Source of the DNA: Candidatus Nanoarchaeia archaeon
GTDB lineage: Archaea > Nanobdellota > Nanobdellia > Woesearchaeales > JANQNC01
Direction: 5' to 3'
DNA length: 32,000 nt
Assembly: GCA_028279745.1 (NCBI GenBank)
Contig: JANQNC010000001.1
Span: 1-32,000, forward strand
The stretch's first letter is position 1; each line of letters opens with the position of its first letter. This document shows positions 5,941 to 30,092 of this stretch, in pieces. The translations under genes and the position numbers were made by a program. Below the pieces are notes generated by a model. It ran no database searches, was not told the DNA's origin, and saw nothing but the letters and a program-made list of their open reading frames with translations.

Positions 5941-6161
5941 CTGAAAACACCTGCTCTCCACCATATCCATGCGCCCTTGCCTGAACCAACAGGTTTACCT
6001 TTTATTAAACCTTCGCCTCTTAGGTTGTTCAATCTGTAAAGAACTTTAACTCTGGAAACATTTTTCAGTTTAGTTTCAACCTCTTTAGTCTCAAGAGGTT
6101 CTTCTGCACCAGTAAGGATGTCAATGATCTTTCTGCTAACAGCGTCGTTTATGTACATCAT
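5937..6161 (-). CDS. Small winged-helix-turn-helix DNA-binding protein (74 aa)
   Basis: MMYINDAVSRKIIDILTGAEEPLETKEVETKLKNVSRVKVLYRLNNLRGEGLIKGKPVGSGKGAWIWW fits the helix / recognition helix / beta-wing pattern of MarR/ArsR-like wHTH proteins. A TATA box ends 20 nt upstream of the ATG. The stop is coupled to the downstream giant gene. Confidence 0.7.
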   Translation of the reverse strand: MMYINDAVSRKIIDILTGAEEPLETKEVETKLKNVSRVKVLYRLNNLRGEGLIKGKPVGSGKGAWIWWRAGVFR

Positions 6162-6181: not shown

Positions 6182-6189
6182 TTTATAAA
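6182..6189 (-). promoter_or_regulatory. TATA box for the wHTH / giant surface protein operon (apparently leaderless)
   Basis: TTTATAAA, with 20 nt between the box and ATG 6161. That spacing places the expected start site at or near the start codon. Confidence 0.6.
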
Positions 6190-6679: not shown

Positions 6680-7414
6680 ATGAAGAAGATGAGGAGGAAT
6701 ATGAAAATACTGCATCATAAAATGGAACAAAAATTCAAATTCAAAATTGGAAAATTAGGCTCACTCTTCCAAAAGGAAGACCAGGTGCCCCCTGAGATTA
6801 ATTCTCAAAACGCCACCCCCAATCCAGTGGTAGAGGGGGGCACCATCCCTATCAAAAGGAGGACAAGAATGAAAAGAAATACTGCGAACCATAAAAGAGG
6901 TGGTAGATGGATAATAGCAGTAGTGATGACTTTGTTGGTGATGAATGTAGCAATGGCTTTGGAAGTCAAAACTTTTGATGAAAATTTGTTCGAGATAGAT
7001 GCATTCGAAACAGGAGATATGGTTGTGATACTGGTAGATGCGGAAACTCAACCGCTGATCACAATATCGGAATCAGAAGTAGTCGACAAAGAGATGGAGC
7101 TCATAGATGAAGGAAAGTACAGAGGAATGATACAAGTTAGTGAAGAAGGAGAATACGAAATCAAAGTTACAGAAGGAGATAATGTTGATACAACAGAGAT
7201 AGTTGTTGTGAACGACTTAGGGTTTGAATGGGAGGAAGTAGAAGCACAACTTGAAGAAGAAAAAGAAGAAAGAAAACAAATCATAGAGGAAGCAAAAAAA
7301 CAGGCAATCGAAAGATTGAGTGAAGAACAAGAAAAATCATTTTGGCAAAAGATAAGCAACTTCCTGAAAGAGATGTGGGAATGGATGTTCAAAGGAGAAA
7401 AGAATGAAGAGTAA
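6680..7414 (+). CDS. Signal-anchored or secreted small protein: beta-rich N-domain plus acidic coiled-coil C-terminus
   Basis: This is the maximal ORF. Alternative starts are ATG 6722 (directly after a micro-ORF stop) and ATG 6869 (AGGAGG at 6857-6862, 6-nt spacer), which gives MKRNTANHKRGGRWIIAVVMTLLVMNVAMA/LEVK. The hydrophobic segment ends in AxA. The C-terminus is EEVEAQLEEEKEERKQIIEEAKKQAIERLSEEQEKSFWQKISNFLKEMWEWMF. It overlaps the next gene by 11 nt. Confidence 0.7.
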   Translation: MKKMRRNMKILHHKMEQKFKFKIGKLGSLFQKEDQVPPEINSQNATPNPVVEGGTIPIKRRTRMKRNTANHKRGGRWIIAVVMTLLVMNVAMALEVKTFDENLFEIDAFETGDMVVILVDAETQPLITISESEVVDKEMELIDEGKYRGMIQVSEEGEYEIKVTEGDNVDTTEIVVVNDLGFEWEEVEAQLEEEKEERKQIIEEAKKQAIERLSEEQEKSFWQKISNFLKEMWEWMFKGEKNEE

Positions 7415-13400: not shown

Positions 13401-13496
13401 CCACAAGATCCATTTGGAAACGACCTATACACGATGGAAACAGGAAAAGCATACAAGATATGGGTACAGGAGGACGACGTACTTTTCATAAGCTAA
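7404..13496 (+). CDS. Giant (2030 aa) secreted protein, predicted alpha-helical/coiled-coil and heavily N-glycosylated; putative fibrous surface protein
   Basis: AAGGAG sits upstream of ATG 7404. Signal peptide: MKSKTIGIIGIMILLVSLFVITATA/LEVK. The protein comprises a ~95-aa beta-rich N-domain and then ~1800 aa with heptad-like hydrophobic spacing. It is built from two families of long internal repeats. My hand count finds roughly 90 N-x-S/T sequons. An ~85-aa beta-rich C-terminal domain follows. Confidence 0.9.
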   Translation: MKSKTIGIIGIMILLVSLFVITATALEVKQGTSEDLTIFLQNSSSGAPLTGITCVADVWNPSNTKIVDDGALTELDEGFYYYPTNAGWTDLGDYRVMVKCTISGENVFSAMMFEMVATTIEEYLVEINETTSQTYDYLQNTLYPAVDTLEASVADIDNNQTQIWNKLVTVESDIATNYNEIMDAQMMIGEINTSTMAELQDHRNRLVEINTTTWEMLDNITDTVNPKLDQLQTDIDLIKGYTDTIETELNCGAVSAGDVCSKLNDIISYTDTVESGITSIQSNIDDLNATVDTRFDAVDTSLSNIYADTQSILTSGVHLSSEDNATLYNILGLVTDSNTTIYDVKNYMEGTVTTYLAEINTTTQEINATVNDIYNYLQNTVYPAVDTLEASVADIDNNQTQIWNKLVTVESDIATNYNEIMDAQTLMTSVNDTVMTELIDHRNRLIEINTTTWASLINITLEVVPKIDAVQADTDDLQTELALVKNYVDSLEDGQSDLYNNLTVIQGYTDTLETGITGLENDISTLNNTVSGRLDTIDTSLSDIYTDTQSVINSGVKLDAITNVTLYDVLSKVTDTNATIAEVKTYLEGPVMTLLAEINTTTHGTYDYLVNTVYPAIDTLETSMAEVQNNNSQIWTKVVEIQNNVTNNFDEILAVQNTLQEVNTTVMVELVDHRQRLIELNTTTWDIYINITHEVVPKIDAVQADTDDLQTELALVKDYVDTLELGQQTIIGNISAVQVVVDAIDVNTTELEGLISGLDDMLDCDGSGDGTVCLYLEAINTTVGIIDDNTDSLEAGQTTITNYVDTLEGGQTTIQNYVDTLEDELNCVSPAASDVCSQLSTVQSYVDSLESGQQAIIGNITASETTITSQLTTIENYVDTVETQLVGLSSDISDWEANATSRFDAIDASLTNVYADTQQIVNSGVKLDAITNVTLYDVLSKVTDANATIADVKTYMEGSLTTLILDVNASITETIEFESNLTRNQIMDMIQSNVTSILSAISTNGADINSILTKWGTYNASGIVDEITVNRNEITTMQSWLDAFNTTEQARHNESMDLGQEILNWLGIYNGTEAQRHNITQSLLNELVANMTDSINLSNEIIAQLGINASATTVYDELVALSNQNNQIITLTNEINLTTHNIDTNLIELNTTISLIKTDTTDLLGKWGTYNSSSIMDQLTLMDGKLDIISTSSLNNTDVLNAVAQMESLLNETRAEIGFNGTGITAYEYLVNVDSFLTEMNTTIINKIEFEGNLTRNYIVDVINSNVSTLISEINSNEGKLDSLLAKWGSTNASYILENITENRDKLITIEGWLDAFNVTEQARHNESMDLGQDILNWLGIYNGTEAQRHNLTQGLLNDLLTEIDANENLSNIIISRIGYNGTVPTTLYEDIQTIITQNTDITILVEEINITSHTTLEIVNETMVPKLDAMHTTTQDILSRWDTYNASQLWEKTGVTETKVDTMQAWLDSFNTSEQTKYGSVIAELDAVDALIGDVRNDIGVNGSGLSVYDNLVTIDNKIVDMNTTLYIKMEVESNLTRQELKDMINANVTSLLTEINENEGKLDTLSTDLGNVSLVSLMANVTEARNQLTGLENWLDEFNATEQNRTNDVIDFLNNIILPEIDMTEELTNDLITQVGFNGSNETLLDKLLDIRLQQDYVANATQVLITVGNNLTTLLSENSQKMDLLKTSVDLSTVYISAVYTKWGAYNMQDIYNKLNLIELKVDILDFSNISTLMNRFDDIELAINQTRAELGFNGTSMSAFESLLNLQTQMNAVNSSLQVAIETQGNLTRTQIEDKITNATATIVNEVNVNENHLYDILDKWGNVTAEDIITNVTDVRNGITAIEAWLIAFNTTEQDRHDNETGLVQSVLDWLNVFGTTEAERHDAIMGNITETITLINTTQGIANEIIAQIGYNITNRTVYEDIQQLLANTVNITGGTGSITGINYVILENGTNMIALPMQPTNTSIESVMGVLADNYYRVDWYNDTSSSWQTYNPQDPFGNDLYTMETGKAYKIWVQEDDVLFIS
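7836..7954 (+). repeat. 119-bp near-identical direct repeat, copy 1 (pairs with 8553..8671)
   Basis: Hand alignment gives 115/119 identical. The four differences (T/C, T/C, G/A, C/T) all fall on third codon positions and are synonymous. Both copies encode AVDTLEASVADIDNNQTQIWNKLVTVESDIATNYNEIMDA. Confidence 0.9.
8553..8671 (+). repeat. 119-bp near-identical direct repeat, copy 2 (pairs with 7836..7954)
   Basis: Same alignment as copy 1. The offset is 717 nt (239 codons), in frame. Confidence 0.9.
10320..13200 (+). repeat. Intragenic tandem repeat family B (four units of ~254-283 aa)
   Basis: The anchor motif (E/Q)(S/G)NLTR recurs at 10341, 11160, 12009 and 12771 (offsets 819, 849 and 762 nt, all in frame). 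The best-conserved block, WLDAFN(T/V)TEQARHNESMDLGQ(E/D)ILNWLGIYNGTEAQRHN, lies at 10521-10660 and 11340-11479. Hand alignment of that block gives about 124/140 nt identical. Units 3 and 4 are more diverged. Confidence 0.85.
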
Positions 13497-13497
13497 G

Positions 13498-15402
13498 ATG
13501 AATAACAAAAAACTAATCTGGATGTTTGTATTCATGGTTTTACTAGTGTCAACTGTAGCATTAGCAAAGCAACCAAATCCAGAAATCTACTGGGGAAGAG
13601 TATACCTAGATGGAAGCTATGCTCCTAACGGAGGAGTACTAACGGTAGAAACAGCATCAGGTGAGCTATTGATAAATGAAACACTGCCAAAATCAGGAGG
13701 ACATCCAGGAAGTTACAGTATAAGCGTACAGTTTGATGACTTGTTAACTAATGCAACAGATGAAGGAGCAGAGAATCTAGAACAGTTAGTCTGGAAACTA
13801 GATGGAATAGAAGTTGTAACTCCATTGAATGACACAGCAGTCATAGGGGAGACAAACAACGAGTTTAATGTAACTGCAGTAACAATACCGCAAGTGACTA
13901 TAGGGAATTTGTTCTACACCTCAATCACAGTAGGACAGGTAATAAATGACACATTATCATTGGATAATACCGGAGCAGGAGATGGAGACGTAACAATAGC
14001 ACTTAACTATAATGCAAGTGCGTATGATGTGACAACAAATCTGCCATTGACACCAACACTTTCCGCAAATAGTTCAACAAATGAAAGAATAGAAATAATA
14101 CCAAACGCATGCGGAAGTTATAACTTAAGCTTACAGACAGATGTCTTGGACACAGCAGGAAGACTAAGAACAACAAAATCACAAGACATAACATTTGATT
14201 ACACAGGACCTAATCTTGTTGTGACTAACATAGATTCAGGAACGTTGACAGTGAATGAAGTAGCACAGCTAAGCGTAAAAGTACAAAATAGTGGGAATGA
14301 AGATATAACAGGATTTAACACAAGCGTAAAGATAGATAATGTAGAGATAGGCAACACTTATGCTAACTACACTTTAACAGAGGATGAGAACTTATCAATA
14401 GGAACACTCTGGACTCCAACATCTGCAGGAACATACAACATAACTGCGGAGATAACAACAACAGAGCTAGAATGCACATCAACAGATAACATATTCAGTA
14501 AAATAGTAACAGTACAAGCAGCAACATCAGGTGGTGGAGGATCTGGTGGATCAGGAGGATCTGGTGGGGGAAGTTCATCAGGAGGAAGCTGCACACCAGA
14601 ATGGGAATGCACAGAATGGGGCGAATGCGGATACTTCAGCGGTGTAAGAACAAGAACCTGTGAAGACAAAAAAGAATGTGGTACACTGTTTAACAAACCA
14701 GAAGAAGAGGAACAGTGTAGAGGGGTTCCTGCATGCACAGATGGAATGCTAAACGGACAAGAGGAAGATATAGACTGTGGAGGATTATGTGAAGCATGCC
14801 CTATACAAACAGCAGAAGAAGAAAACAAACCAAAAACTAACCTGATTACGGGTGATGCAGTTGATCAAGAAGAGAAAGGAATGCAAAGAATACTAGACTT
14901 CCCATCACTACTGCTGGCATTTATGACATTAGTGTTCCTAATGGGATATGTGTTCATCTACAAAAATATGGACGCACAATCATATGAACAATACAGCGTA
15001 AAGATATTAGATGATCCAGGAACAAAGAAACAATATGCATATGTGCCATTTGAGTACATGATGCAGGCAGCAGACATAATAGATAACGTACATAGTTCAA
15101 AGCTGTCACAAAAAGCACTAAAAGAACAATTTGAAAAACAAAAATACAGTCCGGTTGTAGCAAGACTAGCATTGAAAGCAGTCAGATCAACAGGTGTGGT
15201 GATGAAGAATGAGGCAAGAATAAGAAAAGAACTAGCTGCTTTAGAGATAGGTAAAGAAGGATATGACTACATAAGCTATACAACATTATCAAAATCAGTA
15301 AAACTGATGGCAGAACTATTCAAAGTAATAAAAGACGATAAAGAAAGAAAAAAGATAGTGAAATTAGCTGTTGCAGGACTGGGCAGCGTAAAAACAGAAT
15401 AA
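13498..15402 (+). CDS. Type I membrane surface protein: signal peptide, beta-rich and CARDB-like domains, Gly/Ser linker, two Cys-rich modules, one TM and a ~145-aa cytoplasmic tail
   Basis: The start lies 1 nt after the giant gene's stop. Signal peptide: MNNKKLIWMFVFMVLLVSTVALA/KQ. CARDB-like segment: LVVTNIDSGTLTVNEVAQLSVKVQNSGNEDITGFNTSVKIDNVEIG...TSAGTYNITAEI. Linker: SGGGGSGGSGGSGGGSSSGGS. Cys-rich region: CTPEWECTEWGECGYFSGVRTRTCEDKKECG...C, then CTDGMLNGQEEDIDCGGLCEAC. TM: FPSLLLAFMTLVFLMGYVFIY. Confidence 0.9.
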   Translation: MNNKKLIWMFVFMVLLVSTVALAKQPNPEIYWGRVYLDGSYAPNGGVLTVETASGELLINETLPKSGGHPGSYSISVQFDDLLTNATDEGAENLEQLVWKLDGIEVVTPLNDTAVIGETNNEFNVTAVTIPQVTIGNLFYTSITVGQVINDTLSLDNTGAGDGDVTIALNYNASAYDVTTNLPLTPTLSANSSTNERIEIIPNACGSYNLSLQTDVLDTAGRLRTTKSQDITFDYTGPNLVVTNIDSGTLTVNEVAQLSVKVQNSGNEDITGFNTSVKIDNVEIGNTYANYTLTEDENLSIGTLWTPTSAGTYNITAEITTTELECTSTDNIFSKIVTVQAATSGGGGSGGSGGSGGGSSSGGSCTPEWECTEWGECGYFSGVRTRTCEDKKECGTLFNKPEEEEQCRGVPACTDGMLNGQEEDIDCGGLCEACPIQTAEEENKPKTNLITGDAVDQEEKGMQRILDFPSLLLAFMTLVFLMGYVFIYKNMDAQSYEQYSVKILDDPGTKKQYAYVPFEYMMQAADIIDNVHSSKLSQKALKEQFEKQKYSPVVARLALKAVRSTGVVMKNEARIRKELAALEIGKEGYDYISYTTLSKSVKLMAELFKVIKDDKERKKIVKLAVAGLGSVKTE

Positions 15403-15452: not shown

Positions 15453-17912
15453 ATGGCAACCAGACTTAAAGCTAGGACTACAAAAACAGAAGATAAAGAG
15501 ACAAAGCAAATCTTAGCACACGCTAAAAAAAGACTAAAACAAGGGTACAGTGAAGATTCAGTAAAGATCTGGCTGAAAAGAGAAAATTATCCTACCAAAA
15601 AAATAAATTCTGCCCTCAAAGAAGTTCTAAAAGAATCAAAAACAAAAGAAAAGAAACAGAAAAGAGAATCACTTAGTCTACACAGGAAACGAGCTGAACA
15701 ACTAGTCAAACAGGAAGCTCAAAAGAAAGAAAGACAGAAGAGAGCAAAAGAATTACAGAAAAAGATCTTGGCGCAAAAAAAGAAAGATGAAAGAGAGAGG
15801 ATAAAAAGAGCAGCATCGCTTAAAAAACAAGCTGAAGAAAGAAGACAAAAAGCAGCAGAAGCTAAGAAAAAAGCAGAAAAAGAAAAAGCAATACTAGAAC
15901 TGGAGAGAAAGAAGAAAGCAGCAGAAAGAAAAAAACAAGCAGCTAAAAAGAAAAAAGAGCTAGAAGAAATAAAACAAAAAAGACTAGAAAAGCACAGATT
16001 AGTATTGGCTGAAAAAGCAGCAGAAGAAAAACTAAAACAAGGAATAGCAAGAAAAAAAGTCAAAAAAGCAAAACAGATGTGGAAAGAAGAAGAGGTAAAG
16101 AAACAACTCAAGAAAGAATCAAGAAGAAAAGCATTTGCAGCATCAATATCAAAAGAAAAAGCAGCTGAAGAAAAGAAAAAAGCAGATAAAGCGAAAAGAC
16201 TGAAAGAGTTTAAGGCCAGTAAGCAAAAAGCAGAACAAGAAAGAGCAAGAAAAGAATTAATGTTAGAGAAAAGATCCAAAGAGTTAGAGAAACAGAGACT
16301 GGTTGAAGAGAAAAAGAAAAAGCAAGAGTTATTGAAGAAAAGGAGAGAGGAGAAGAAGAGAAAAGAGCAGGAAAAGAAGAAAAAAGCAGCAGAGAAAAAG
16401 AAGTTACTGGCAGAAAAAGCAAAAAAGAAAACAGCAGAGAAAAAGAAAAAAGAGCAAGAGAGAAAAAAGAACGAAGCCGAAAAGAAAAGAGAACTTTCTA
16501 AAAGAGAAAAAGAAGAACAAGCAGCATTGAAAGAAAAGTTGTATAGGATAGAATCAGCAAGAAAGTTGTGGAAAGAGTCTGAAAAAGAGAAAACAGAACT
16601 GAAAACAAAAAGAAAACAAAAATTCTTAGAAACAAAAGCAGTTGAGGAAAAAGAAGAGAAAAAGAAACTAGCTGCTGAGAAGAGAAGAAAAGCAGCAAAG
16701 AAGAAGAGAGATGCTGAAAAGTTAGTAAAGCAAAGAGAAGAAGCAGAAAAAGCAAGAGCAGATCTAGAAAAACAAACCGCAAAAGAGAAACGGGCTAAGA
16801 AAGCAGAACAGAAAAAGATAGAAAAAGAAAGAGAACAAAGGATAGCTGAACAAGAGAAAGAAGATTTTGAAAAAGCAAAGAAAAAAGCGCAAGAGATACA
16901 AAAGAGAGACAGAGAACGAGCAAGAAGAGCTAAAAAAGCACAAAAACAAAGAGAGCAGACTATCAAAGACATCCAGGAAAGATTTACAAAAACTATGGAC
17001 TTAGTCCATAGAAGACTAAAAGCTGCAAAAGAGGAAGCAACAACCAAGAAACAGGAAAAAGCAGTAGATAAAGCACACGAAGAGATAGAGAAACTAGGAA
17101 AAGACTTTGGTAAACTAGAAGAAAAAGTAGAAGAAAAGATAGAGATCATAGAACCAGAAGAAGCTAAAGAGGAGAAGAAAAAAGAGGAAGTTGAAAAAGA
17201 GATCAAAGAAGAACCTCAAGAAACGGTAGTGGAAACAACCGCGGAGGTTGAAGATGAAAAAGAAGAACAAGAAGAACCAGAAGCAGAGTCAATAATCGAA
17301 GCAGTTGCTGACGAAAAACCAGAAGAAGAAAAAGCACCCGAAGAGATGACAAGAGAAGAAGTGCTTGATAAGAAAGAAGAACTAATCGGTCAAATAAAAT
17401 CATTCGAGAAAAAAGTAGTCAGTAGAGAAGAGAAAATAAAAGAAATCCTGAAAGATTCAGCATTAAAAGATCTAGAAAAAGAATTGGAAAAGAAACTACA
17501 AAAAATACAAAAAGGACTAAAAGAAGATATTAAAGAGATAAAAGAAGAAGTCAAAGACACTCAGAAACAATGGGTTTCTGGCGCCACTAAAGGTGGAGAA
17601 AAAGAAGAACAGAAGGAAGAATCAAAGGAAGAGAAAAAACAAGAAATTCCTGCGTCTGAAGAAAAAGAGCTGACAAAAGAAGAAAAACAGAAGGTAGTTG
17701 ATGAAGTGATGCAGAAATCAAAATCTTATTCTGAGAAAGTATGTGAGATAGTGAATAAATTTGAGTTTGTTGAATTAAGCGAGTTGGCAGACTTTATGGA
17801 TGTAGACAAAAAAACACTGCAAGAGTGGGCAGAACAAGAAGCAAAAGAAGGCAAAATAAAAATATTCAACGTCAAGAATGGAACTTACGAACTAAGAAAA
17901 AATCCAAACTAA
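15453..17912 (+). CDS. 819-aa Lys/Glu-rich protein (putative very long charged single alpha-helix) with small structured N- and C-terminal domains
   Basis: TTTATAAG (15408-15415) and GAGGT lie upstream. N-terminus: KKRLKQGYSEDSVKIWLKRENYPTKKINSALKEVL. About 600 aa of K/E/A/R low complexity follow. The C-terminus, VCEIVNKFEFVELSELADFMDVDKKTLQEWAEQEAKEGKIKIFNVKNGTYELRK, looks like a winged helix. No TM or signal peptide. Confidence 0.85.
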   Translation: MATRLKARTTKTEDKETKQILAHAKKRLKQGYSEDSVKIWLKRENYPTKKINSALKEVLKESKTKEKKQKRESLSLHRKRAEQLVKQEAQKKERQKRAKELQKKILAQKKKDERERIKRAASLKKQAEERRQKAAEAKKKAEKEKAILELERKKKAAERKKQAAKKKKELEEIKQKRLEKHRLVLAEKAAEEKLKQGIARKKVKKAKQMWKEEEVKKQLKKESRRKAFAASISKEKAAEEKKKADKAKRLKEFKASKQKAEQERARKELMLEKRSKELEKQRLVEEKKKKQELLKKRREEKKRKEQEKKKKAAEKKKLLAEKAKKKTAEKKKKEQERKKNEAEKKRELSKREKEEQAALKEKLYRIESARKLWKESEKEKTELKTKRKQKFLETKAVEEKEEKKKLAAEKRRKAAKKKRDAEKLVKQREEAEKARADLEKQTAKEKRAKKAEQKKIEKEREQRIAEQEKEDFEKAKKKAQEIQKRDRERARRAKKAQKQREQTIKDIQERFTKTMDLVHRRLKAAKEEATTKKQEKAVDKAHEEIEKLGKDFGKLEEKVEEKIEIIEPEEAKEEKKKEEVEKEIKEEPQETVVETTAEVEDEKEEQEEPEAESIIEAVADEKPEEEKAPEEMTREEVLDKKEELIGQIKSFEKKVVSREEKIKEILKDSALKDLEKELEKKLQKIQKGLKEDIKEIKEEVKDTQKQWVSGATKGGEKEEQKEESKEEKKQEIPASEEKELTKEEKQKVVDEVMQKSKSYSEKVCEIVNKFEFVELSELADFMDVDKKTLQEWAEQEAKEGKIKIFNVKNGTYELRKNPN

Positions 17913-21563: not shown

Positions 21564-21587
21564 TTTATAAAGAAAGTTTGTCAGAAT
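21564..21587 (+). promoter_or_regulatory. Cassette-1 promoter: TTTATAAA-N7-TGTCAGAAT
   Basis: TATA at 21564-21571, a 7-nt spacer, then TGTCAGAAT at 21579-21587. The same architecture occurs at 26481-26504. Confidence 0.6.
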
Positions 21588-21608
21588 GTATAATTAAGGG
21601 GTTATTAG

Positions 21609-22655
21609 ATGAAAAAGGGGCAAGTAACAGCGTTTGTAGTATTAGGGGTTATAATCGTAATTCTTGGAGCAGTATTTTTCTTAGCACAGCCATCAGGAGT
21701 AGATGAAAGAACGATAGAAGAGTCAGTAGCAATAACCTCGGACGGGATAGCAGTATCACAATTTATCAAAGGTTGCATGGACACCACAGCAAAATCAGGA
21801 GTGTTATTGGCAGGATTGCAAGGTGGATATACTGATGTGCCGCCAAACTATTTCCCATCAGCATATTCAGATATACCTTACTATTATGACAGAGGACAAC
21901 AAAGTGTAGTTGAATTAAATGATGTAGAGAGCCAGATTGAAAGATTCATGAACTCAAATGTTAAAGCATGCATAAACAACTTTGAAGACTTCACAGAAAA
22001 AGGAGTTAGTGTTAGTGCAGTCAATTCTCCACTTACGGATGTAACAATAAACCCATTGACTGGGATGAGTGTAGCATTAAACTACGAAGTTACTGTGGGC
22101 AGTGGAGAGATGCAAGAAAGCCTAACCAAGTTTGCAGTAGTATACGATTACAGACTAGGGCTGGTGAGGGATACCGCACAAAAAATAGTAGATGAAGTAG
22201 CAGAAAATCCAAAACTAGTTCCATTATCATATCTTACTGAATTGAATGAACAAACAGGGTTACAGATAGACTCATTCAGCTACGGAGACGATAAGGTAGT
22301 GTACATAATAAAAGACTTAGGAACAATAGTTGAAGGAGACACACCTTTATTATTCATCTTTGCAGTGAAAACAGATATTACAAACAGTCCGCCATTAGTT
22401 GTAATAGATGAATCCCAACTAACTGGAAGTGTGGGAGAAGAGTTTAGCATGCAAGTAATTGCAACAGATGAAGAACTAGATCCATTATACTTTGACATAA
22501 CAAATGATGATCTGGTTACAGATGAGATTGACATAGATGGATTGACAGGAGAGATTAGCTTTACACCAACTGAAGCAAGAACATATGCTGCAACAGTAAC
22601 CGTAACAGACGGAGACAATGTTGTAAGCAAACAAATCACGATCACCATCAACTAA
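21609..22655 (+). CDS. N-terminally anchored extracellular protein (class-III-signal-like N-terminus) with C-terminal cadherin-like/He_PIG-type Ig domain; paralog of 26530..27513
   Basis: The N-terminus MKKG/QVTAFVVLGVIIVILGAVFFL fits the archaeal prepilin-type pattern [KR]-G-[Q..]-hydrophobic. Central motifs conserved with the paralog: GIAVS..IK.C, GLQGGYT.V, YYY..GQ, N.L.GM..ALNY, PL...FAV. The C-terminus PPLVVIDESQLTGSVGEEFSMQVIATDEELDPLYFDI...IDGLTGEISFTPTEARTYAATVTVTDG is typical of putative-Ig/cadherin-like repeats. Confidence 0.85.
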   Translation: MKKGQVTAFVVLGVIIVILGAVFFLAQPSGVDERTIEESVAITSDGIAVSQFIKGCMDTTAKSGVLLAGLQGGYTDVPPNYFPSAYSDIPYYYDRGQQSVVELNDVESQIERFMNSNVKACINNFEDFTEKGVSVSAVNSPLTDVTINPLTGMSVALNYEVTVGSGEMQESLTKFAVVYDYRLGLVRDTAQKIVDEVAENPKLVPLSYLTELNEQTGLQIDSFSYGDDKVVYIIKDLGTIVEGDTPLLFIFAVKTDITNSPPLVVIDESQLTGSVGEEFSMQVIATDEELDPLYFDITNDDLVTDEIDIDGLTGEISFTPTEARTYAATVTVTDGDNVVSKQITITIN

Positions 22656-22665
22656 AAATAAAAAA

Positions 22666-22700
22666 AGAGGCAGGCAGAAATGGAACATTTCTGAGCCTCT
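22666..22700 (+). other. Strong intercistronic stem-loop (6 bp + 8 bp, GAA loop)
   Basis: AGAGGC-agg-CAGAAATG-gaa-CATTTCTG-a-GCCTCT. All pairs are Watson-Crick as read from the sequence. AAAAAAGAGG flanks both sides. Confidence 0.6.
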
Positions 22701-22744
22701 AAAAAAGAGGTTACAAAGAGAAAAAACAAACGAGGTAAGTAACC

Positions 22745-25573
22745 ATGAAAAAAATATTATTTGCATTAACATTCTTGATCTGTGTAGCTATAGCTTTAGC
22801 GCAGGAACCTTTGCCTGAATATGATCCAGAAACATTTGATTATTCAACAGGAGATGTTTATAGTATAGATAACTGGGATCAGCTAACTGCAGAACAGTTC
22901 GATCAGCTTTATGGCAATCCAAAATTTAGCTTATCATCTAATTCACTTGGAAGCTCAGAAGAGTTTGACAGAATAATAAACAATCCAAACTTTGACATAA
23001 CAAGACTAACATATGATAACACAAAAGACTTAGTTTCTGATAGTGATCTAGATAAAGCAAGCTTTGAGAAATTACTAACAAAAGCATCAGATGAAGGAAA
23101 ATTCACACAATCAGAAGGAGTAAAAGCGATGTTTGCAGCATCACAAGGACTAGACCCTGCAAACTTCAAAGTAGACCAGGGCTTGACAGGAGTAAAGATC
23201 GATAAAGCTCAGCTTGGAAGAACATACATGATAGATACAGGCAAAGGGACAAGTTATGACTTTGGAATTGAAACAGTTCCAGGAAGAAAAATACAATCTT
23301 TAGAGATAGATAAAGAAGGAAACATCAAGGTAACATACCAAGGAAAATCAACAACTTTCAAAGCAGGCTCAGGAGATATAACAAGAATTCCTGAATCTGA
23401 TGATAAAGGACAACCGTTCTGGGTTACACCTTCAGGAGATCATGGGCATACGTTTGCTGTGCCTGAAGATGCAGAAGAAGTAGATGTTCAAGTAAAAGAT
23501 AGACTAGATGGAATCTCTTTCCAAGAGGTTAAGATAACTGGGCAAGGAAGAACATACGATGTTGCAGTTGACATGAGGGAGCCTAGGGATTCAATAAAAC
23601 TATTTGAGTGCAGCATGGAAGATGATGGTTCATTAATCATTGATGTAGAAGACTTTGGAAAAGGGGGAAGTGTTGATGATATCACAAGAAGCAGGTTTGT
23701 AGTAAAATCAAAAGATCCAGAAACAAACATACAGCTATTCAACAGACAAGACCAGATAAGAAGAGATGAGCTAGAAGGGGTAGACGATCCGGGAGCATGG
23801 CTTCCAGGAGGGTTTGAACAGTTTGCAAGAGTTAACGGAGGAGCAGTAATAGCTTATGATTCCGTAGGCGATCAAGAAGAGTTAAACCCAGTAAGTGTAG
23901 ATGTAGATGGAAACAATCTAGAACTACAAGGAGCAAGAGGAAGCTATAGAGTTCAGACTAGCAATCTAGACTTTGACTCAGCACACTATGGTCCAGTAAG
24001 AGATGGAAAAACATTTTTGAAAGATGAAAATGGAGACTTCATAATCGAAAGACAGACTGGAGTTGCAACAGTAACGACAACATTCACGCAAGATTCTGCT
24101 CTAAACATAATAACAGAATTCAGCACAGATAAAAGCGGAAGACTTGATGTAGAAACAGCACCTCACGTTGGGGGAATGCGGTTTGATGGAGTAACACAAG
24201 ATTTCAAATTTGATGAAGCTAACGGCGAGTTAATCGAAGGAACACTTGCAAGAGGAGGAAGGTTCACATATGCACAAGCGGGAGTTGAGCATTCAGGAAG
24301 CTTGCCACTACAGTTTGGAGCAGATAGTGGAGTTACATTCCACACAGATGAGTTTGATTTTAATGAGGATGAAAACAGCGCAATACTGATCTCACAAGGA
24401 GGGGCTTTGATAAACGTGCAGCAACCAGGAACAATTAAGTTCGATGAATTCAGAATAGATGAAGGTGAAGTAGATCTATCAGTTCAAGATGAACAGACAG
24501 AACAAGAAATATTTGTGATGCCTGAAGAAGGCGAAACACCTGCAAGGATAGATACATCAGGAACAGAAACAGACTACGTCAAACTAGATTGTGGCGGCTC
24601 AAATGGCGTGACTGGAAGAGCGATAACTGGGATGCAGGTAGCATCTGGGGGTAGTTTATGTTTAGCTCCATCAACAACATACAGAAATGAATTAGGAACT
24701 GGGGGAAATTACGAACAAGGACAAAGATCAGTTGAGCATGCTGTAGATAAATTAACTTCTGGCTTTGAAGAACAATACAAAAGCCAAACAGGAGTCACTT
24801 TAACAACTGAAAGTGGAAGAACACTTTCATTAGAACTTGATAAACAATTTGTAGTTGGAGAAGGAAGAGGAGAGAAATACAACTTATACAAATACACCGA
24901 TAGAGATGGAGGTCATGACTACTCACTTTATGTTGATGAAGCTGAAGCTAAGTTTGTAACGATGTATGTGCTGCAAGATCCTAAAACAGGAAAGTATGTG
25001 GAATTAACACCTCTGAACTACAATAACATAATTAATGGACAGACAAATAATGGGTTAACATATCTTGGAAACAACCAATTAAGCTATGCTATGGCAACAA
25101 TCCCTGAACCAGAAGAATCAGATGTAATATTCACGATGCCTGAAGAACCTGCGACAGAACCTACGATAATCTCTGAAGAGCAGGAACAAGAAAATCTCGA
25201 AAGATCACGACAAGAGTTATTGGATATTTTAGGGGTTACAGAACAAAGGCCAACTGAATTAGAAGAAATACAGGAAAGGGTAAGCAGCGTACAAGAGAGT
25301 GCATGGTCTGCACCTGAGATAAGTGTTGAAGGAACAAGTGTTTTCTATAGTGGAGAAAACTCAATGGGTTTCTTTGAAACAAGTGAACTTCCAGTAAGTG
25401 CTGAAGAGTTTGAGCAGCTTCCTGCATCTGAACAAGCGAGGATAGTTAGTGATGTATATGCTAGACAGATCAGAGATGAAGAAGGCACACAGCGGATCGG
25501 GTACCAGTACTTGCGTGAAGTAGGCGAACCATTTTCTGCACTAGACAAAGCACACTTTGAGATAAGGGAATAA
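22745..25573 (+). CDS. Large secreted hypothetical protein (942 aa), acidic
   Basis: GAGGT lies upstream. Signal peptide: MKKILFALTFLICVAIALA/QEP. No recognisable catalytic motif and no C-terminal TM. Oligo-T tracts follow the gene. Confidence 0.85.
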   Translation: MKKILFALTFLICVAIALAQEPLPEYDPETFDYSTGDVYSIDNWDQLTAEQFDQLYGNPKFSLSSNSLGSSEEFDRIINNPNFDITRLTYDNTKDLVSDSDLDKASFEKLLTKASDEGKFTQSEGVKAMFAASQGLDPANFKVDQGLTGVKIDKAQLGRTYMIDTGKGTSYDFGIETVPGRKIQSLEIDKEGNIKVTYQGKSTTFKAGSGDITRIPESDDKGQPFWVTPSGDHGHTFAVPEDAEEVDVQVKDRLDGISFQEVKITGQGRTYDVAVDMREPRDSIKLFECSMEDDGSLIIDVEDFGKGGSVDDITRSRFVVKSKDPETNIQLFNRQDQIRRDELEGVDDPGAWLPGGFEQFARVNGGAVIAYDSVGDQEELNPVSVDVDGNNLELQGARGSYRVQTSNLDFDSAHYGPVRDGKTFLKDENGDFIIERQTGVATVTTTFTQDSALNIITEFSTDKSGRLDVETAPHVGGMRFDGVTQDFKFDEANGELIEGTLARGGRFTYAQAGVEHSGSLPLQFGADSGVTFHTDEFDFNEDENSAILISQGGALINVQQPGTIKFDEFRIDEGEVDLSVQDEQTEQEIFVMPEEGETPARIDTSGTETDYVKLDCGGSNGVTGRAITGMQVASGGSLCLAPSTTYRNELGTGGNYEQGQRSVEHAVDKLTSGFEEQYKSQTGVTLTTESGRTLSLELDKQFVVGEGRGEKYNLYKYTDRDGGHDYSLYVDEAEAKFVTMYVLQDPKTGKYVELTPLNYNNIINGQTNNGLTYLGNNQLSYAMATIPEPEESDVIFTMPEEPATEPTIISEEQEQENLERSRQELLDILGVTEQRPTELEEIQERVSSVQESAWSAPEISVEGTSVFYSGENSMGFFETSELPVSAEEFEQLPASEQARIVSDVYARQIRDEEGTQRIGYQYLREVGEPFSALDKAHFEIRE

Positions 25574-25579
25574 TTCCCA

Positions 25580-25596
25580 TTTTTCTTTATTTTTTT
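25580..25596 (+). terminator. Oligo-T archaeal-type terminator after the 942-aa gene
   Basis: T5 (25580-25584), T3 and T7 (25590-25596) begin 7 nt after stop 25571-25573. Oligo-T tracts are the established archaeal termination signal. Confidence 0.55.
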
Positions 25597-25626
25597 AGTA
25601 CTTATTAGGGGTGAATTTACGAAAGA

Positions 25627-25634
25627 TTTATAAA
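25627..25634 (+). promoter_or_regulatory. TATA box with CGAAAG BRE-like flank for gene 25686
   Basis: ACGAAAGATTTATAAAGG; 51 nt upstream of the ATG. Confidence 0.55.
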
Positions 25635-25685
25635 GGGCAGTTCATTCTTAGTATATTATGAAGGGGTGGTATCAGAGGAGATACC

Positions 25686-26453
25686 ATGGCATTAGGGGGA
25701 ACAATTAAAGCAATAACTGCAGTTCTACTAGCTTATAGTATATCATTTTCTCAAGATTTGAAAGTAACCCTGCAGAATGTTGGTGAAGTATTCAATTTCA
25801 GAATTGAAAATGGGAAGTTAGCTTATGATAATCCATTAATAACTGATGCTGACCAAATAATCGGGTTGGCTAAACCAGTCTATAAAGCGCTGACAGGACA
25901 AGAAAGATTGCCTGCAATAAAGTTTGTATCTCACCAAGAGATGAAGAAAAGGATAAGCGAACATGAATGTGTAAGAGATGACAGAGGTCATGCAGAATTC
26001 TACTCAAGAAAGAAAGATTCACTTTTCATAAAAAATAATGATCTTAAATATGTAATACATGCGCTATTCCATGGATTAGGGCATTACAGTAAACAAGACT
26101 TATCAAAAGGAAGAGGTCTTGAGGGTATGATGCATGAAGAGCTTGCATCAATAGGTTTGGATAGGGCGGCAGTAGAATTTCTAAAAAACTATATCAGGCT
26201 AGACAACGATCCAAATAAGAAAGGGATAAATCTAGGAAAAATAGCATTCTCTAAAGTTACCTCTCCGTTGCTTTATGTCTCTGATCAAGTTTTGAACAAG
26301 TTGAAAGAAGAAAAAGGGACTTTTTTACAAGCATACAAAATAGCAGCAAAAAAATCAAACTATCATAAGATGGTTAACTATATGAAGCGTGTTCCTGTTT
26401 ATCATAAACTTAAGAACAAAAAAGTGAGATCAAAATCGTATAATAGGTTCTAA
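25686..26453 (+). CDS. Hypothetical protein with N-terminal hydrophobic segment and a degenerate metzincin-like motif HALFHGLGH
   Basis: It has its own TTTATAAA (25627-25634). N-terminus: MALGGTIKAITAVLLAYSISFS. The motif at 26058-26084 is H-A-x-x-H-x-x-G-H. The C-terminus is basic. Confidence 0.75.
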   Translation: MALGGTIKAITAVLLAYSISFSQDLKVTLQNVGEVFNFRIENGKLAYDNPLITDADQIIGLAKPVYKALTGQERLPAIKFVSHQEMKKRISEHECVRDDRGHAEFYSRKKDSLFIKNNDLKYVIHALFHGLGHYSKQDLSKGRGLEGMMHEELASIGLDRAAVEFLKNYIRLDNDPNKKGINLGKIAFSKVTSPLLYVSDQVLNKLKEEKGTFLQAYKIAAKKSNYHKMVNYMKRVPVYHKLKNKKVRSKSYNRF

Positions 26454-26480
26454 ACCATTCTGAATATATTAAACATAACG

Positions 26481-26504
26481 TTTATAAAAGATAACTGCCA
26501 GAAT
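26481..26504 (+). promoter_or_regulatory. Cassette-2 promoter: TTTATAAA-N7-TGCCAGAAT
   Basis: TATA at 26481-26488, a 7-nt spacer, then TGCCAGAAT at 26496-26504. This parallels cassette 1. Confidence 0.6.
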
Positions 26505-26529
26505 CAGCACTAAAAGAGGATGGCAGAGT

Positions 26530-27513
26530 ATGAAAAAACAAGGGATCATATTTAGTGTAATAGGTGTAGTGATTGTCATTGTAGGGGTGATCTATTTCTT
26601 AGGTTTATCTCAGTCAGATTATGAATGGGAAAAATATGATGCAGAAACTCCAGAAGGGATTGCAGTTTCAACTAAGATAAAAGAATGTCTCGATCTGAAA
26701 GTTAGAGATGCGATAATGTTGACTGGGCTACAAGGCGGGTATACTGAAGTAAAATCAAACTATTTGGAGACACAACACTCAAACGTTTCTTACTATTATA
26801 ACGATGGTCAGATAACTGTTCCTTCTATAGATGTTATTGAGAACGAGATGGAAAATTATATTAGTAAAAATGTTGGGGAATGTGTAAAAGATTTTGAATC
26901 CACAAGCACTCCAAAACTAGATGTAAGGATTAATGTACTTTCAGGCATGGTCGCAGCACTTAACTATTCAATAAAGGTAGGGGAAGAGAGTCTAGATGTT
27001 TTTCATGTAAGTTATAGTTATCCTGTTGGCACGATGAGAAATGTGGCAGAGGAAATAATCGGTAAAGTTTCAGAATACCCTCAGATGATACCCCAGTCAG
27101 ACATAGTTACATCGGGCAGAAAATACAAATTGGATGTTAACACATTCAATTACGGCAGTGAGGATGTAGTTTATGTTATAGAGGATACGAAAAATATGGT
27201 GGGAGCAGATGCACCTTTGATGTTACTTTTTGCCGTAAGAAGCACAAAAGGGAACACACCTCCAGAAATATTTTTGATTAATCAGACACAATTGAATGGG
27301 GTCGTGGGGGAGCAGATGCTGATACAGCTTGACTCTTATGATGCAGATAATGACCTTGTAAAGTTTGATGATGATAGCGATATGTTTGATATAAACACAT
27401 ACACTGGAGAGATAGACTTTGTTCCATACGCTGCAGGGGAACATAAAATTATAATAACTGCAACAGATGGAGTTTACACGATAGATAACGAGATTGTGAT
27501 AAGGGTGAAGTAG
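26530..27513 (+). CDS. Paralog of 21609..22655: N-terminally anchored extracellular protein with C-terminal cadherin-like Ig domain
   Basis: N-terminus: MKKQGIIFSVIGVVIVIVGVIYFLG. It shares GIAVS, GLQGGYTEV, YYYNDGQ, NVLSGMVAALNY, PLMLLFAV and TGEIDFVP...TATDG with the paralog, collinear along the full length. Confidence 0.85.
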   Translation: MKKQGIIFSVIGVVIVIVGVIYFLGLSQSDYEWEKYDAETPEGIAVSTKIKECLDLKVRDAIMLTGLQGGYTEVKSNYLETQHSNVSYYYNDGQITVPSIDVIENEMENYISKNVGECVKDFESTSTPKLDVRINVLSGMVAALNYSIKVGEESLDVFHVSYSYPVGTMRNVAEEIIGKVSEYPQMIPQSDIVTSGRKYKLDVNTFNYGSEDVVYVIEDTKNMVGADAPLMLLFAVRSTKGNTPPEIFLINQTQLNGVVGEQMLIQLDSYDADNDLVKFDDDSDMFDINTYTGEIDFVPYAAGEHKIIITATDGVYTIDNEIVIRVK

Positions 27514-27516
27514 AAC

Positions 27517-29526
27517 ATGAAAAAAATATTGGTCGTATTGGTGATGATCTTATCAGTTTTTACAGCGTATGCACAAGTAAATGATGATGAATATAAAGAT
27601 GATTTGATTGAAGGAGGAGATGATGCTCTATTTTACTCTGAACTCAATAGTGTAGAAGGTATGAATGTGCAGCTTAGTGAAGACGGTGTTGAGTTATACA
27701 GTCCAGATAACGGGCATGAAGCAAACCTTACTTTGATGAAAGATTTTCACGGAAGGATCGCAGCTTTTAAACTAGCCAATGAAGGCAGGGCGATCATAAG
27801 ATCAAGCGCAACTCAGGATAGCGGTGTTGAGTACGCGATAGAAGGTGCAAACATTTGGGGAGAGTTGGTGTCAGGAAAATTAGCGAGAATAAAATTTGAC
27901 GCAGGAAGAGTAATCCTAAAAAAATATGGAGTTGTAAGTTATGTTTTTGAAAGTAAAGCAGAACATGAAATAGCAACTTCAACAAATCATCTGAGAAGAG
28001 ATGCATATGGATATCTGGTTCTTAATGAAGCGGGGGTTAGCGAGTTAAGTTCAAGAGACGCGCGTATCAATGGGTATGTTATAAGGGCAAACAAAATATT
28101 CTTACCTTATTACGAAATAGAAACTCAAGATTCACAGACAAGGATAAGGTTTGAGTTTGATGAGTCAATAAGCAATGCAGAATTAGGTTCTACTTACGTT
28201 AGTGGGGCAAAAAATACAAAAAATCTAAATCAGATAAAAAAGATCAAAGGGATGAATATATCTGAAGAATTCAGCATAAAATACAGAACTGATGCATTAA
28301 GAGGGAAAGAAGGTTCTTTGGTTGTAGTTCAAGATCTTGGAGCTTATGTTAATGCAACTGATGAAGGAACAAACAAGACTTTTATCGTAAATAGACTAAC
28401 TGATAGAATATACGCTTACCAAAATTCAACAAGAGGGAATGTTGTATTCTACGATTTTATAACAGATGAAGGTGCGGAAAAATTGGTAGTCAAACCTTCT
28501 GACGAGGTAGGGGGAAGATCAGGAGAGATTTTAGAGACTGTAAAATCGGTCCATAACGATGTCAGGAATCCTGAAAGGCTTACTTTGATGAGCAGTTATT
28601 ATAACACTAAGCAAGCAATCAAAAGTTTAAGAGAGGATATAGGGGGTATAGAGTATAAACTGGATGCGTTACCTGAAGAAATTAAAGAAGCAGAGTCACT
28701 AGAAACATTAAACAAAAGAAAAAGAAGTTATGAACAAAGGCTGGATAGGTATAAGAACACGAATGAAACAGTATTTTTCTCACCAACAGATTTAAGTTTG
28801 CTGTGGGTGGATGGGACTGAGTATGTTAAAGAAGGAAGCTCACCATACCTTTATGTGTCAGATAATAAAAAATACTTTTTGTATAACCCTTTAGATGGGG
28901 ATGCAAAGAAACTAGATAAGAATGGTGCAAGTGCAGAAAGAGGAAGACATGAGACAGAAATAAAAATTGATAGTTATGATGAAGACTCTGTTTTGAGTAA
29001 ACAAGAGTTAGAAAATGAGCTAAGTAACAATAAGAAAAGATTAAGATCGGCAGAAACCCAGTTGGAGTACAAGTATGCGGATCTAGAAAATTATTTTGAA
29101 GCTTGGGCAAAACTGCAGGTTATGGAGATATACGCATCTGAAAATGATTATAATAATTTGCGTCTTGCAGAACGGGCAATACGTAATTCTGGTCTAAGCA
29201 AGGGAGATAAAGAGAAGGCAGTCTATAAGGTGGGTAGAACACACATTAAAAGTAGAGAGTTTTGGAACCTTGCGTGGGCAGGCACATACATACAGAGGCT
29301 ATCGGAGAGAACAGACCCTCTGGGCATAAAAGAGTACAAAGAAACAGTGTTAATCCTGATAAATACAACTTTGAATGGGCGACCAGGCAGATTAAATAAA
29401 TGTTTAGAAGAGTTTAGCCTGATGCTACCTGAAAACGAAGAAGACATCGATAAACCAGGATACTTTGGTCATGACCGAGCATTTCTAGCTGATTATGCAG
29501 TAAGGGTGGTGTGTAAATCTGAATAA
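27517..29526 (+). CDS. Large secreted hypothetical protein (669 aa)
   Basis: The start lies 3 nt after the upstream stop, with GGGTGA as SD. Signal peptide: MKKILVVLVMILSVFTAYA/QV. It occupies the same position in its cassette as the 942-aa gene, but I see no clear sequence similarity beyond the signal peptide. Confidence 0.85.
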   Translation: MKKILVVLVMILSVFTAYAQVNDDEYKDDLIEGGDDALFYSELNSVEGMNVQLSEDGVELYSPDNGHEANLTLMKDFHGRIAAFKLANEGRAIIRSSATQDSGVEYAIEGANIWGELVSGKLARIKFDAGRVILKKYGVVSYVFESKAEHEIATSTNHLRRDAYGYLVLNEAGVSELSSRDARINGYVIRANKIFLPYYEIETQDSQTRIRFEFDESISNAELGSTYVSGAKNTKNLNQIKKIKGMNISEEFSIKYRTDALRGKEGSLVVVQDLGAYVNATDEGTNKTFIVNRLTDRIYAYQNSTRGNVVFYDFITDEGAEKLVVKPSDEVGGRSGEILETVKSVHNDVRNPERLTLMSSYYNTKQAIKSLREDIGGIEYKLDALPEEIKEAESLETLNKRKRSYEQRLDRYKNTNETVFFSPTDLSLLWVDGTEYVKEGSSPYLYVSDNKKYFLYNPLDGDAKKLDKNGASAERGRHETEIKIDSYDEDSVLSKQELENELSNNKKRLRSAETQLEYKYADLENYFEAWAKLQVMEIYASENDYNNLRLAERAIRNSGLSKGDKEKAVYKVGRTHIKSREFWNLAWAGTYIQRLSERTDPLGIKEYKETVLILINTTLNGRPGRLNKCLEEFSLMLPENEEDIDKPGYFGHDRAFLADYAVRVVCKSE

Positions 29527-29554: not shown

Positions 29555-29687
29555 ATAGCAGTCATAATTCTAGTATAATTTTATGGAGGCAACAAAATGG
29601 CACTAGAGGCAGCGGAAATCAAAGATTTCCGGGCTTTTAAAATTTAAGACAAGCGAGGTGATAAAAATTTTAAAAGAACCTAATTCG

Positions 29688-30092
29688 ATGGATGAATGTT
29701 TATATTTTACAAGAAGAACGGAAGGAGATAAAGGCCACATAATGGCATGGGCGTTTAAGAAAAAGTGTCCAAAGTGCGGAGCTTTGATGGGAAAACCCGT
29801 AGAAAAAGGCAAAGTAAAGATCAGAGCAAAAGAGTATGTATGCGGAGAATGTGGGTATACAGAAGAGAAAGCAGAACATGAGGCAAGTCTTACTGTATCA
29901 GTAAAGTATACCTGCCCAAAGTGTGAGCATAAAGGCGAAGAAGAGATACCATTCAAAAGAAAAGCATTCCAAGGAACACAAGCATTTGTGTTTAATTGTT
30001 CAGAATGTGGTGAGAAAATAGGAATCACCAAAAAAATGAAAGCGCCAAAAAGCAAAAAGAAGAAAGCAGAAGTTGATCCGGAGGATATGTAA
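29688..30092 (+). CDS. Tandem zinc-ribbon protein (four CxxC pairs) with Lys-rich tail
   Basis: ORF track gives 29658..30092 (GTG); the first in-frame ATG is at 29688 (MDECLYF...). CPKC...CGEC and CPKC...CSEC form two zinc ribbons. Tail: KKMKAPKSKKKKAE. Confidence 0.7.
   Translation: MDECLYFTRRTEGDKGHIMAWAFKKKCPKCGALMGKPVEKGKVKIRAKEYVCGECGYTEEKAEHEASLTVSVKYTCPKCEHKGEEEIPFKRKAFQGTQAFVFNCSECGEKIGITKKMKAPKSKKKKAEVDPEDM

Follow-up and report, generated by a model that had tools for sequence, protein, structure and literature searches.

A recurrent gene pair in Woesearchaeales encodes a candidate pilin-like anchor and a fast-evolving exported protein

Introduction

The type IVa minor pilins of bacteria present PilY1, a variable, Sec-exported protein of ~1000 residues, and several alternative clusters are found per genome in some bacteria. 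Among archaea, the Epd pilins of Methanococcus maripaludis are processed at the sites KGQV, KGQI, and KGQL, of which KGQV is listed for EpdB and EpdC, and the peptidase EppA requires a Gln at position +1 (PMC4371748). Epd-type "system 1" loci have been reported in DPANN archaea, and a PilY-like adhesin of the archaeal subsystem 4A is mentioned (bioRxiv 10.64898/2026.04.22.720090). Little is known about how DPANN archaea recognize other cells and hold on to them, and no function has been determined for any of their surface proteins (bioRxiv 10.1101/2023.10.27.564410). Here, we describe a two-gene cassette that occurs twice in a 32,000-nucleotide stretch from Candidatus Nanoarchaeia archaeon (Woesearchaeales; contig JANQNC010000001.1, positions 1–32,000), a tiny, symbiotic-type archaeon of the DPANN group; this stretch is referred to as the window. 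The first gene, A, encodes a predicted membrane-tethered protein with a prepilin-like N terminus, and the second gene, B, encodes a large protein with a Sec signal peptide. An earlier annotation made from the sequence alone, the original prediction, had seen in the two cassettes a constant presenter with a variable cargo.

The A–B pair is a real, recurrent, and non-trivial gene pair in an understudied archaeal lineage. It represents a concrete candidate contact module located at core-genome positions, next to the SpoIIM and radical SAM genes on the one side and to the genes of methionyl-tRNA synthetase and a DUF7560 protein on the other.

Results

The two cassettes were found where they had been proposed, and all four genes were confirmed in a six-frame list of open reading frames (ORFs), on the + strand: A1 (21609–22655, 348 residues) and B1 (22745–25573, 942 residues) for cassette 1, A2 (26530–27513, 327 residues) and B2 (27517–29526, 669 residues) for cassette 2. 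The same list contains an intervening ORF of 255 residues between them (25686–26453, + strand). In the independent Logan assembly, a 19.6-kb contig corresponds to the window region over 19,603 bases with 0 mismatches. A1 and A2 are paralogs, as originally proposed, with 37% identity over 312 residues (E = 3e-70) and conservation of all the motifs quoted in support of this relationship. The dissimilarity claimed for the second genes is also real: BLASTP and hhalign confined the alignment of B1 and B2 to the signal peptide, MKKIL...A-x-A↓Q, where the arrow marks the predicted cut. A repeat search detected no residual DNA similarity between the cassettes, so their duplication is old.

A profile search retrieved 16 relatives of A. 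Apart from metagenomes, relatives were confined to contigs with the label Candidatus Woesearchaeota, Nanoarchaeota, or unclassified archaeon. The A family has no counterpart among Pfam or NCBIfam families, and no description of it or of the A–B pairing was found in the literature. In total, 18 independent A loci were considered: two in the window, three in L015/L016, and one each in L001, L003, L005, L007, L008, L009/L010, L011, L013, L014, L019, L023, L024, and L025. The next same-strand gene after A encodes a protein with a Sec-type signal, usually of 500–1500 residues, at 17 of these 18 loci, and the two genes often overlap by 4–11 nt or stand 0–3 nt apart. The pairing of first and second genes thus recurs in other genomes, as the original prediction had supposed. 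The long A members (550–760 residues) are found in larger same-strand clusters of exported and membrane proteins (L014 4629–14762, L016 1263–10735, and L013 8001–15345), which have the order transmembrane protein of 270–295 residues, A, giant protein of 1100–1527 residues, and then proteins of 250–800 residues, with no family matches. These clusters may encode a bigger surface complex, of which the window cassette would be the minimal form. In three related archaeal loci, a convergent gene directly after the A–B pair encodes a signal-peptide protein of the YkuD (L,D-transpeptidase) family (L001 13751–14524, L007 5515–6321, and L008 2941–3744, all on the − strand; Pfam E = 1.9e-19 in L008), an odd companion for organisms without peptidoglycan and one that has no counterpart in the window.

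A1 is composed of a class III-like N terminus (MKKG↓QVTAF), a transmembrane helix (residues 3–26), a linker (residues 27–43), a core (residues 44–255), and an immunoglobulin-like (Ig) domain (residues 259–347), and A2 has the same domain layout. Positions 2–18 are the best-conserved stretch of the family, with the commonest residue present in 72% of the sequences versus 28–45% elsewhere and the consensus x-K-K-G-Q-x-T-x-F-I-I-I-G-I. In the alignment of the 17 sequences, as it stands, residues Q5, G13, C56, G72, G73, and C121 do not vary. The motif [KR][GAS]Q[VIFLM][TS] is carried by 16 of the 17 members, A2 being the sole exception, and only A genes matched [KR][GAS]Q[IVLFM][ST]x[FYEL] followed by a hydrophobic stretch in ~190 kb of loci. 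A FlaFind-type rule, in which a leader ending in [KRDE][GAS] precedes a hydrophobic helix of ~20 residues, fits A1 (MKKG↓QVTAFVVLGVIIVILGAVFF) and the same number of members (16/17); A2 (MKKQG↓IIF) fits it only loosely, with no K/R at −2. The KGQV of A1 is an Epd processing site, and the +1 Gln required by EppA is present, as Q5, in all members but one. The class III pattern originally noticed in A1 therefore extends to 15 further members, and the doubt expressed about A2 was warranted, as it is the only one without [KR][GAS]Q. Because the motif is specific to A within the loci, KGQV is an Epd site, and EppA needs Gln at +1, the class III (EppA-type) reading of A1 is well founded at the sequence level.

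The AlphaFold model of full-length A1 (predicted local distance difference test, pLDDT, of 86.8) displays a low-confidence linker (residues 27–43) that connects the N-terminal helix to the globular part. When modelled alone (residues 36–259; pLDDT 92.5, predicted template modelling score 0.88), the core adopts two lobes, each with helix packed on antiparallel sheet. It contains the invariant Cys56 and Cys121, located in two long helices and possibly forming a disulfide bond, together with an invariant GGY. No significant match to the core fold was returned by Foldseek from the PDB (best E 0.014, template modelling (TM) scores of 0.14–0.22) or from BFVD (best E 1.2e-3, TM scores of 0.17–0.28), and a PDB sequence search with the A profile gave no match. 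The sub-threshold, non-significant structural echoes of the core come from helix-on-sheet binding modules of the SecB-like, LptE, NTF2-like, and cystatin types. Full-length A gave Ig-domain matches only in Foldseek. The cadherin-like Ig domain originally proposed for the C terminus finds better support in the modelled structure than in the sequence: the last ~90 residues match cadherin-like modules of SraP, an adhesin of staphylococci, with E = 5e-7 and also match cadherins; by sequence the domain stays below the Pfam cut-offs, with 18.9 versus 23.6 bits for Big_9 and 15.9 versus 24 for He_PIG (E ~2e-3). The C-terminal additions vary within the family, from none (~250 residues in total) to one or two Ig domains or 300–450 extra residues in the forms of 550–760 residues.

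Apart from a cleavable Sec signal, the B proteins contain no hydrophobic segment. B1 carries the signal peptide ALA↓QE, has no other hydrophobic segment, and is acidic (pI 4.3); B2 carries AYA↓QV, has no anchor, and contains a central coiled-coil-like stretch rich in Lys and Glu. An SbcC-like match in B2 was dismissed as a coiled-coil artefact. Altogether, the B proteins form at least seven families unrelated by sequence, and neither profile–profile comparison of B families nor phmmer --max among 16 partner proteins revealed any relationship beyond orthologue pairs. Searches of Pfam, NCBIfam, PHROGs, and PADLOC gave nothing meaningful for the A core, B1, B2, or the 255-residue protein, and PDB sequence searches with B1 and B2 gave no match. 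A word-index search with B1 matched B1 only, and B2 found no homologue but itself among 1.84 billion (1.84e9) representative proteins. The C-terminal third of the orthologous B proteins of L001 and L007 shows a conserved GHHW...D...W, SAC.S, and many Cys. The likeness of GHHW and SAC.S to the His/Cys dyad of a cysteine peptidase is our own reading, with no profile match.

The orthologue of B1 lies directly after the orthologue of A1 in L003 and is 30% identical to B1, compared with 55% for A. The neighboring genes are 58% (SpoIIM) and 68% (radical SAM) identical between the window and L005; A thus diverges at about the rate of its neighbors (A 55–56%) and B far faster. The same holds for L001 versus L007 (A 61%, B 28%) and for L009 versus L010 (A 82%, B 53%). 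A conserved A next to a variable B, as originally predicted, is therefore what the loci contain, and the lack of any detectable homologue of B2 agrees with it. Module swapping, which the term variable cargo implied, was not borne out: B1, B2, and the B1 orthologue have very similar signal peptides, which hints at duplication of the whole cassette. Duplication of this kind, followed by runaway divergence of B, seems at least as likely as the recruitment of unrelated cargo.

N-glycosylation sequons, whose expected numbers were obtained by sequence shuffling, are rare in most B proteins. B1 has 0 sequons versus 5.1 expected (P = 0.003), and the B proteins of L001 (11377–13764), L007 (3210–5363), L011 (9184–12339), and L025 (5724–8717) also have none, making five sequon-free proteins of 717–1051 residues. 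Those of L010 (1825–4638), L013, and L003 have 1 versus 15.2, 3 versus 9.7, and 2 versus 8.9 expected, respectively, and the depletion reaches a combined P of ~2e-11 over 13 proteins. B2 and the L014 and L016 partners show no depletion. Three other exported proteins of the window (7404–13496, 2122–5970 on the − strand, and 13498–15402) are 2–2.5-fold enriched, with 94 versus 38, 41 versus 20, and 12 versus 6.6 expected. The longest of these, a 2030-residue protein encoded on the + strand at 7404–13496, has long internal repeats and a weak DUF7310 coiled-coil match; its gene is followed by that of a CARDB-domain protein (13498–15402) and preceded on the other strand by that of a 1282-residue exported protein (2122–5970). 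The 2030-residue protein is a better candidate for the surface layer (S-layer) or surface coat than the B proteins.

Both cassettes had been predicted to be driven by a shared promoter element, TTTATAAA-N7-TGYCAGAAT. The 32 kb contains exactly two copies of this element, at 21564–21587 and 26481–26504 (chance expectation 0.09, even with 2 mismatches), and the A start codons follow at distances of 22 and 26 nt. In cassette 1, the TATA box TTTATAAA (21564–21571, + strand) precedes the 9-mer TGTCAGAAT (21579–21587), and in cassette 2, the same TATA box (26481–26488, + strand) precedes the 9-mer TGCCAGAAT (26496–26504). The claim stands as far as the two sites are concerned, with the 9-mer present in the window only at the two A promoters. 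Its TATA half is generic, with further copies at 25627, before the 255-residue gene, and at 6182 and 6304, and in L003 and L005 the A1 orthologues have no 9-mer ahead of them. Given the usual archaeal distance from TATA box to transcription start, the 9-mer would lie between the two. As the cassettes have diverged to 37% protein identity and have no DNA similarity, neutral persistence is an unlikely explanation for a 9-mer at the same distance from both TATA boxes. From these two instances, we hypothesize, as the simplest reading, that it may be a genome-specific co-regulatory site coupling both cassettes.

The unit formed by A1 and B1 ends in a terminator-like site (25566–25596, + strand), whose short hairpin, GGGAATAATTCCC, overlaps with the stop codon of B1 and is followed by T-runs, TTTTTCTTTATTTTTTT; oligo-T is an archaeal termination signal. 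B1 has its own Shine-Dalgarno sequence and no TATA box. The 89-nt spacer between A1 and B1 contains a strong RNA hairpin (22666–22700, + strand; ΔG −23.2 kcal/mol, z −5.55) and, when compared to the orthologous spacers of L003 and L005, a 40-nt insertion. A 30-nt unit (22671–22700) forms most of the hairpin and is flanked by the duplicated 10-nt direct repeat AAAAAAGAGG (22661–22670 and 22701–22710). The whole resembles a very small insertion that duplicated its target site; it has no further copy in the window, and the orthologous spacers lack it. In cassette 2, the B2 start lies 3 nt past the A2 stop codon, and such proximity indicates that the two genes are tightly coupled.

The cassettes have core-genome, syntenic surroundings. 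Cassette 1 is preceded by radical SAM and SpoIIM genes, an arrangement also seen in L005, and cassette 2 is followed by the genes of a DUF7560-like zinc-ribbon protein and of methionyl-tRNA synthetase, an arrangement shared with L011, L015, and L024. The zinc-ribbon protein has multiple CxxC motifs (window 29658–30092, + strand; L011 13578–14021; L015 2190–2615; 45–53% identity), and its gene is syntenic with A-family genes and methionyl-tRNA synthetase in three lineages. The 255-residue protein encoded between the cassettes is basic (pI 9.75), with a weak N-terminal hydrophobic segment and a HALFHGLGH motif. Its gene has its own TATA box (25627–25634), and no homologue was found in any related locus or in the PDB. 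That it belongs to the A–B system is doubtful.

Elsewhere, the window is rich in exported proteins, namely the 1282-residue, 2030-residue, CARDB, and LamG proteins. An 819-residue protein (15453–17912, + strand) is mostly a low-complexity helix rich in Lys and Glu (33% K+R, 24% D+E); it gives rise to the extreme AT and GC skew at 15–18 kb and has no family match. A HAMP-domain membrane protein adjoins a KaiC-like/DUF7504 ATPase (63–1262 and 1488–2120, + strand), and the two may constitute a small signaling pair; the ATPase is unrelated to those of type IV filaments. Rfam and tRNA scans of the window returned no matches, and there was no sign of a viral origin.

Discussion

The gene structure, the paralogy, the family-wide N-terminal motif, the recurrent pairing, the divergence rates, and the novelty of the fold are shown directly here. 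The reading that we tentatively favor, at somewhat under even confidence, goes further: A would be a pilin-like anchor or adaptor that presents the anchorless, fast-evolving B, and the two cassettes would be ancient duplicates. Each cassette would then act as a two-gene operon for a cell-surface complex. After export, A would probably be cut between Gly and Gln by a prepilin peptidase of the EppA/Epd type, and the remaining hydrophobic helix would serve to retain A in the membrane or within a structure resembling a type IV filament. The flexible linker of ~17 residues would carry the putatively disulfide-braced, two-lobed α/β domain, whose fold is novel, and also the cadherin-like Ig domain present in this lineage. 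We infer that B, once exported by Sec, would be held at the surface by binding to A, since it has no anchor of its own and could remain on the cell only with a partner. B would be the exposed, fast-evolving part of the complex, most likely a partner- or host-contact protein such as an adhesin or effector, and in this genome the two old duplicates may be co-regulated through the 9-mer beside the TATA box.

Several observations weigh against this reading of A as a pilin-like presenter. No gene for a prepilin peptidase, filament ATPase, or platform protein was found in the window, as originally stated and now confirmed among the Pfam-scanned ORFs and gene calls, or within 6–10 kb of any of the 18 loci; this is not decisive for class III membership, because many archaeal pilins and the proteins of the bindosome are encoded apart from their machinery. 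A2 starts with MKKQG-IIFSVIG, a degenerate site in which direct inspection finds no canonical Gln, and the +5 residue of the family is Phe or Tyr (QVTAF, QITVF), not Glu. No pilin or class III profile (Pfam Class_IIIsignal, Pilin_N, and similar) matched A at E ≤ 1 in Pfam or E ≤ 0.1 in NCBIfam, no pilin structure appeared among the Foldseek matches of A, full-length or core, and in the model the helix leads into a flexible linker instead of a pilin fold. Pfam recognized no domain, adhesin and enzyme domains included, in B1, B2, or 13 other B proteins. One short A gene (L016 10739–11461) is solitary and has no B partner, a 265-residue exported protein separates A from the 1117-residue protein in L014, and the 9-mer does not precede the A1 orthologues. 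Some of these points speak for the main rival explanation, an unlikely but serious one, in which A is an uncleaved, bitopic signal-anchor protein that serves B as its dedicated membrane anchor, or as an extracytoplasmic assembly factor or chaperone, with no prepilin peptidase or filament machinery involved. The absence of filament genes near all loci, the linker in place of a pilin fold, and A2, which keeps the whole ectodomain yet lacks the cleavage motif, are all expected of such a protein, and the faint, non-significant resemblance of the core to helix-on-sheet binding modules would suit it as well. This explanation does not readily account for [KR][GAS]-Q-[VI]-T-x-F-I-I-I-G, which is near-invariant although the members are only ~20% identical elsewhere and which equals the experimentally defined EppA site.

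The remaining explanations concern B and its relation to A. That the B proteins are released effectors or toxins, with A acting in their release or activation or as an immunity-like binder rather than as a display anchor, is improbable. It would suit anchorless, very large, hypervariable, and mostly sequon-free proteins, the GHHW...SAC.S region that we liken, with no profile match, to a protease dyad in L001 and L007, and the YkuD gene beside three loci, whereas no toxin, enzyme, or defense-system domain was detected in any B or A, and A is membrane-tethered and has an adhesin-type Ig domain. We consider it slightly less probable again that A and B are surface proteins with independent functions whose co-transcription is fortuitous, their duplication being a neutral tandem event. 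The solitary A gene, the locus with an intervening gene, and the 89-nt, hairpin-containing spacer of cassette 1 would be compatible with this; however, adjacency has been kept across A proteins of only ~20–25% identity and at least seven unrelated B families, with frequent overlaps of stop and start codons, which would be hard to maintain without selection. An S-layer pair of anchor and canopy, like SlaB and SlaA of Sulfolobales, is very improbable. A small membrane-anchored protein does adjoin a large, fast-evolving exported one, and in DPANN archaea, no S-layer protein has been determined, S-layer sequences being notoriously divergent (bioRxiv 10.1101/2023.10.27.564410). Against it, two or more different cassettes occur per genome, A is anchored at its N terminus and not at its C terminus, and no Ig-rich architecture was detected in B1 or B2. 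B1 has no sequons, the majority of B proteins have fewer than expected, and the three sequon-enriched proteins of the window are better candidates; on these counts, B was rejected as an S-layer protein.

A bolder form of the presenter reading, which we regard as a rather unlikely extension, is a contact system specific to DPANN archaea, in which an Epd-type adaptor of new fold would carry an unglycosylated, hypervariable B at the surface or at a filament tip. B would engage, insert into, or be delivered to the envelope of a host or partner cell, and different cassettes in one genome would confer different partner specificities; sequons would be avoided because the surface has to be free of glycans or because B has to pass through a narrow path. 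Independently of this extension, the A core fold, the conserved pairing with hypervariable giant proteins, and the sequon avoidance of B are new. A would extend the large class III-signal proteins beyond the known pilin, archaellin, and solute-binding classes, and sequon avoidance is unusual for exported archaeal proteins. Should the pair be merely a surface anchor and a variable coat protein, it would still be useful, in Woesearchaeales, as a marker of surface antigens that evolve rapidly.

When compared with known systems, the A–B pair shares part of the features of each and is at most a candidate member of the Epd, modular-pilin/bindosome, or PilY1 families, several of their defining features having been looked for and found absent. 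The likeness to the Epd pilins and EppA of M. maripaludis resides in a short, basic leader with K/R-G at its end, the +1 Gln that comes next, and a hydrophobic helix, and the KGQV of A1 is identical to the site of EpdB and EpdC (PMC4371748). The A proteins differ from these pilins by their size (250–760 residues), with a linker and large non-pilin domains, by Phe or Tyr instead of Glu at +5, by the lack of a Pfam pilin or Class_IIIsignal match and of nearby Epd ATPase and platform genes, and, for A2, by the lack of the site itself. With the tip complexes of minor pilins and PilY1, the cassettes have in common a pilin-like gene adjoining that of a large, variable, Sec-exported non-pilin protein. 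They differ in having one pilin-like gene per cassette, not four, and no filament genes nearby, and Pfam gave no PilY1/PilC domain or β-propeller signal in B1, B2, or 13 other B proteins.

SlaB and SlaA likewise combine, in one operon, a small anchored protein with a large, rapidly diverging exported one (bioRxiv 10.1101/2023.10.27.564410). The anchor of A is at the opposite end, N-terminal as opposed to the C-terminal stalk of SlaB, the cassettes are multiple and non-homologous, and the SlaA canopy is heavily N-glycosylated, whereas B avoids sequons (none in B1 for 5.1 expected). Finally, modular type IV pilins such as PilB of Streptococcus sanguinis and the class III-signal substrate-binding proteins of the archaeal bindosome resemble A in two respects (PMC8179133; bioRxiv 10.64898/2026.04.22.720090): a pilin-type N terminus is grafted onto a functional globular module, and the genes lie apart from the filament machinery and adjoin functional partners. 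The module of A is neither a vWA nor a solute-binding domain, its fold being without a match in the PDB or BFVD, and the partner gene of A encodes a giant secreted protein instead of an ABC transporter.

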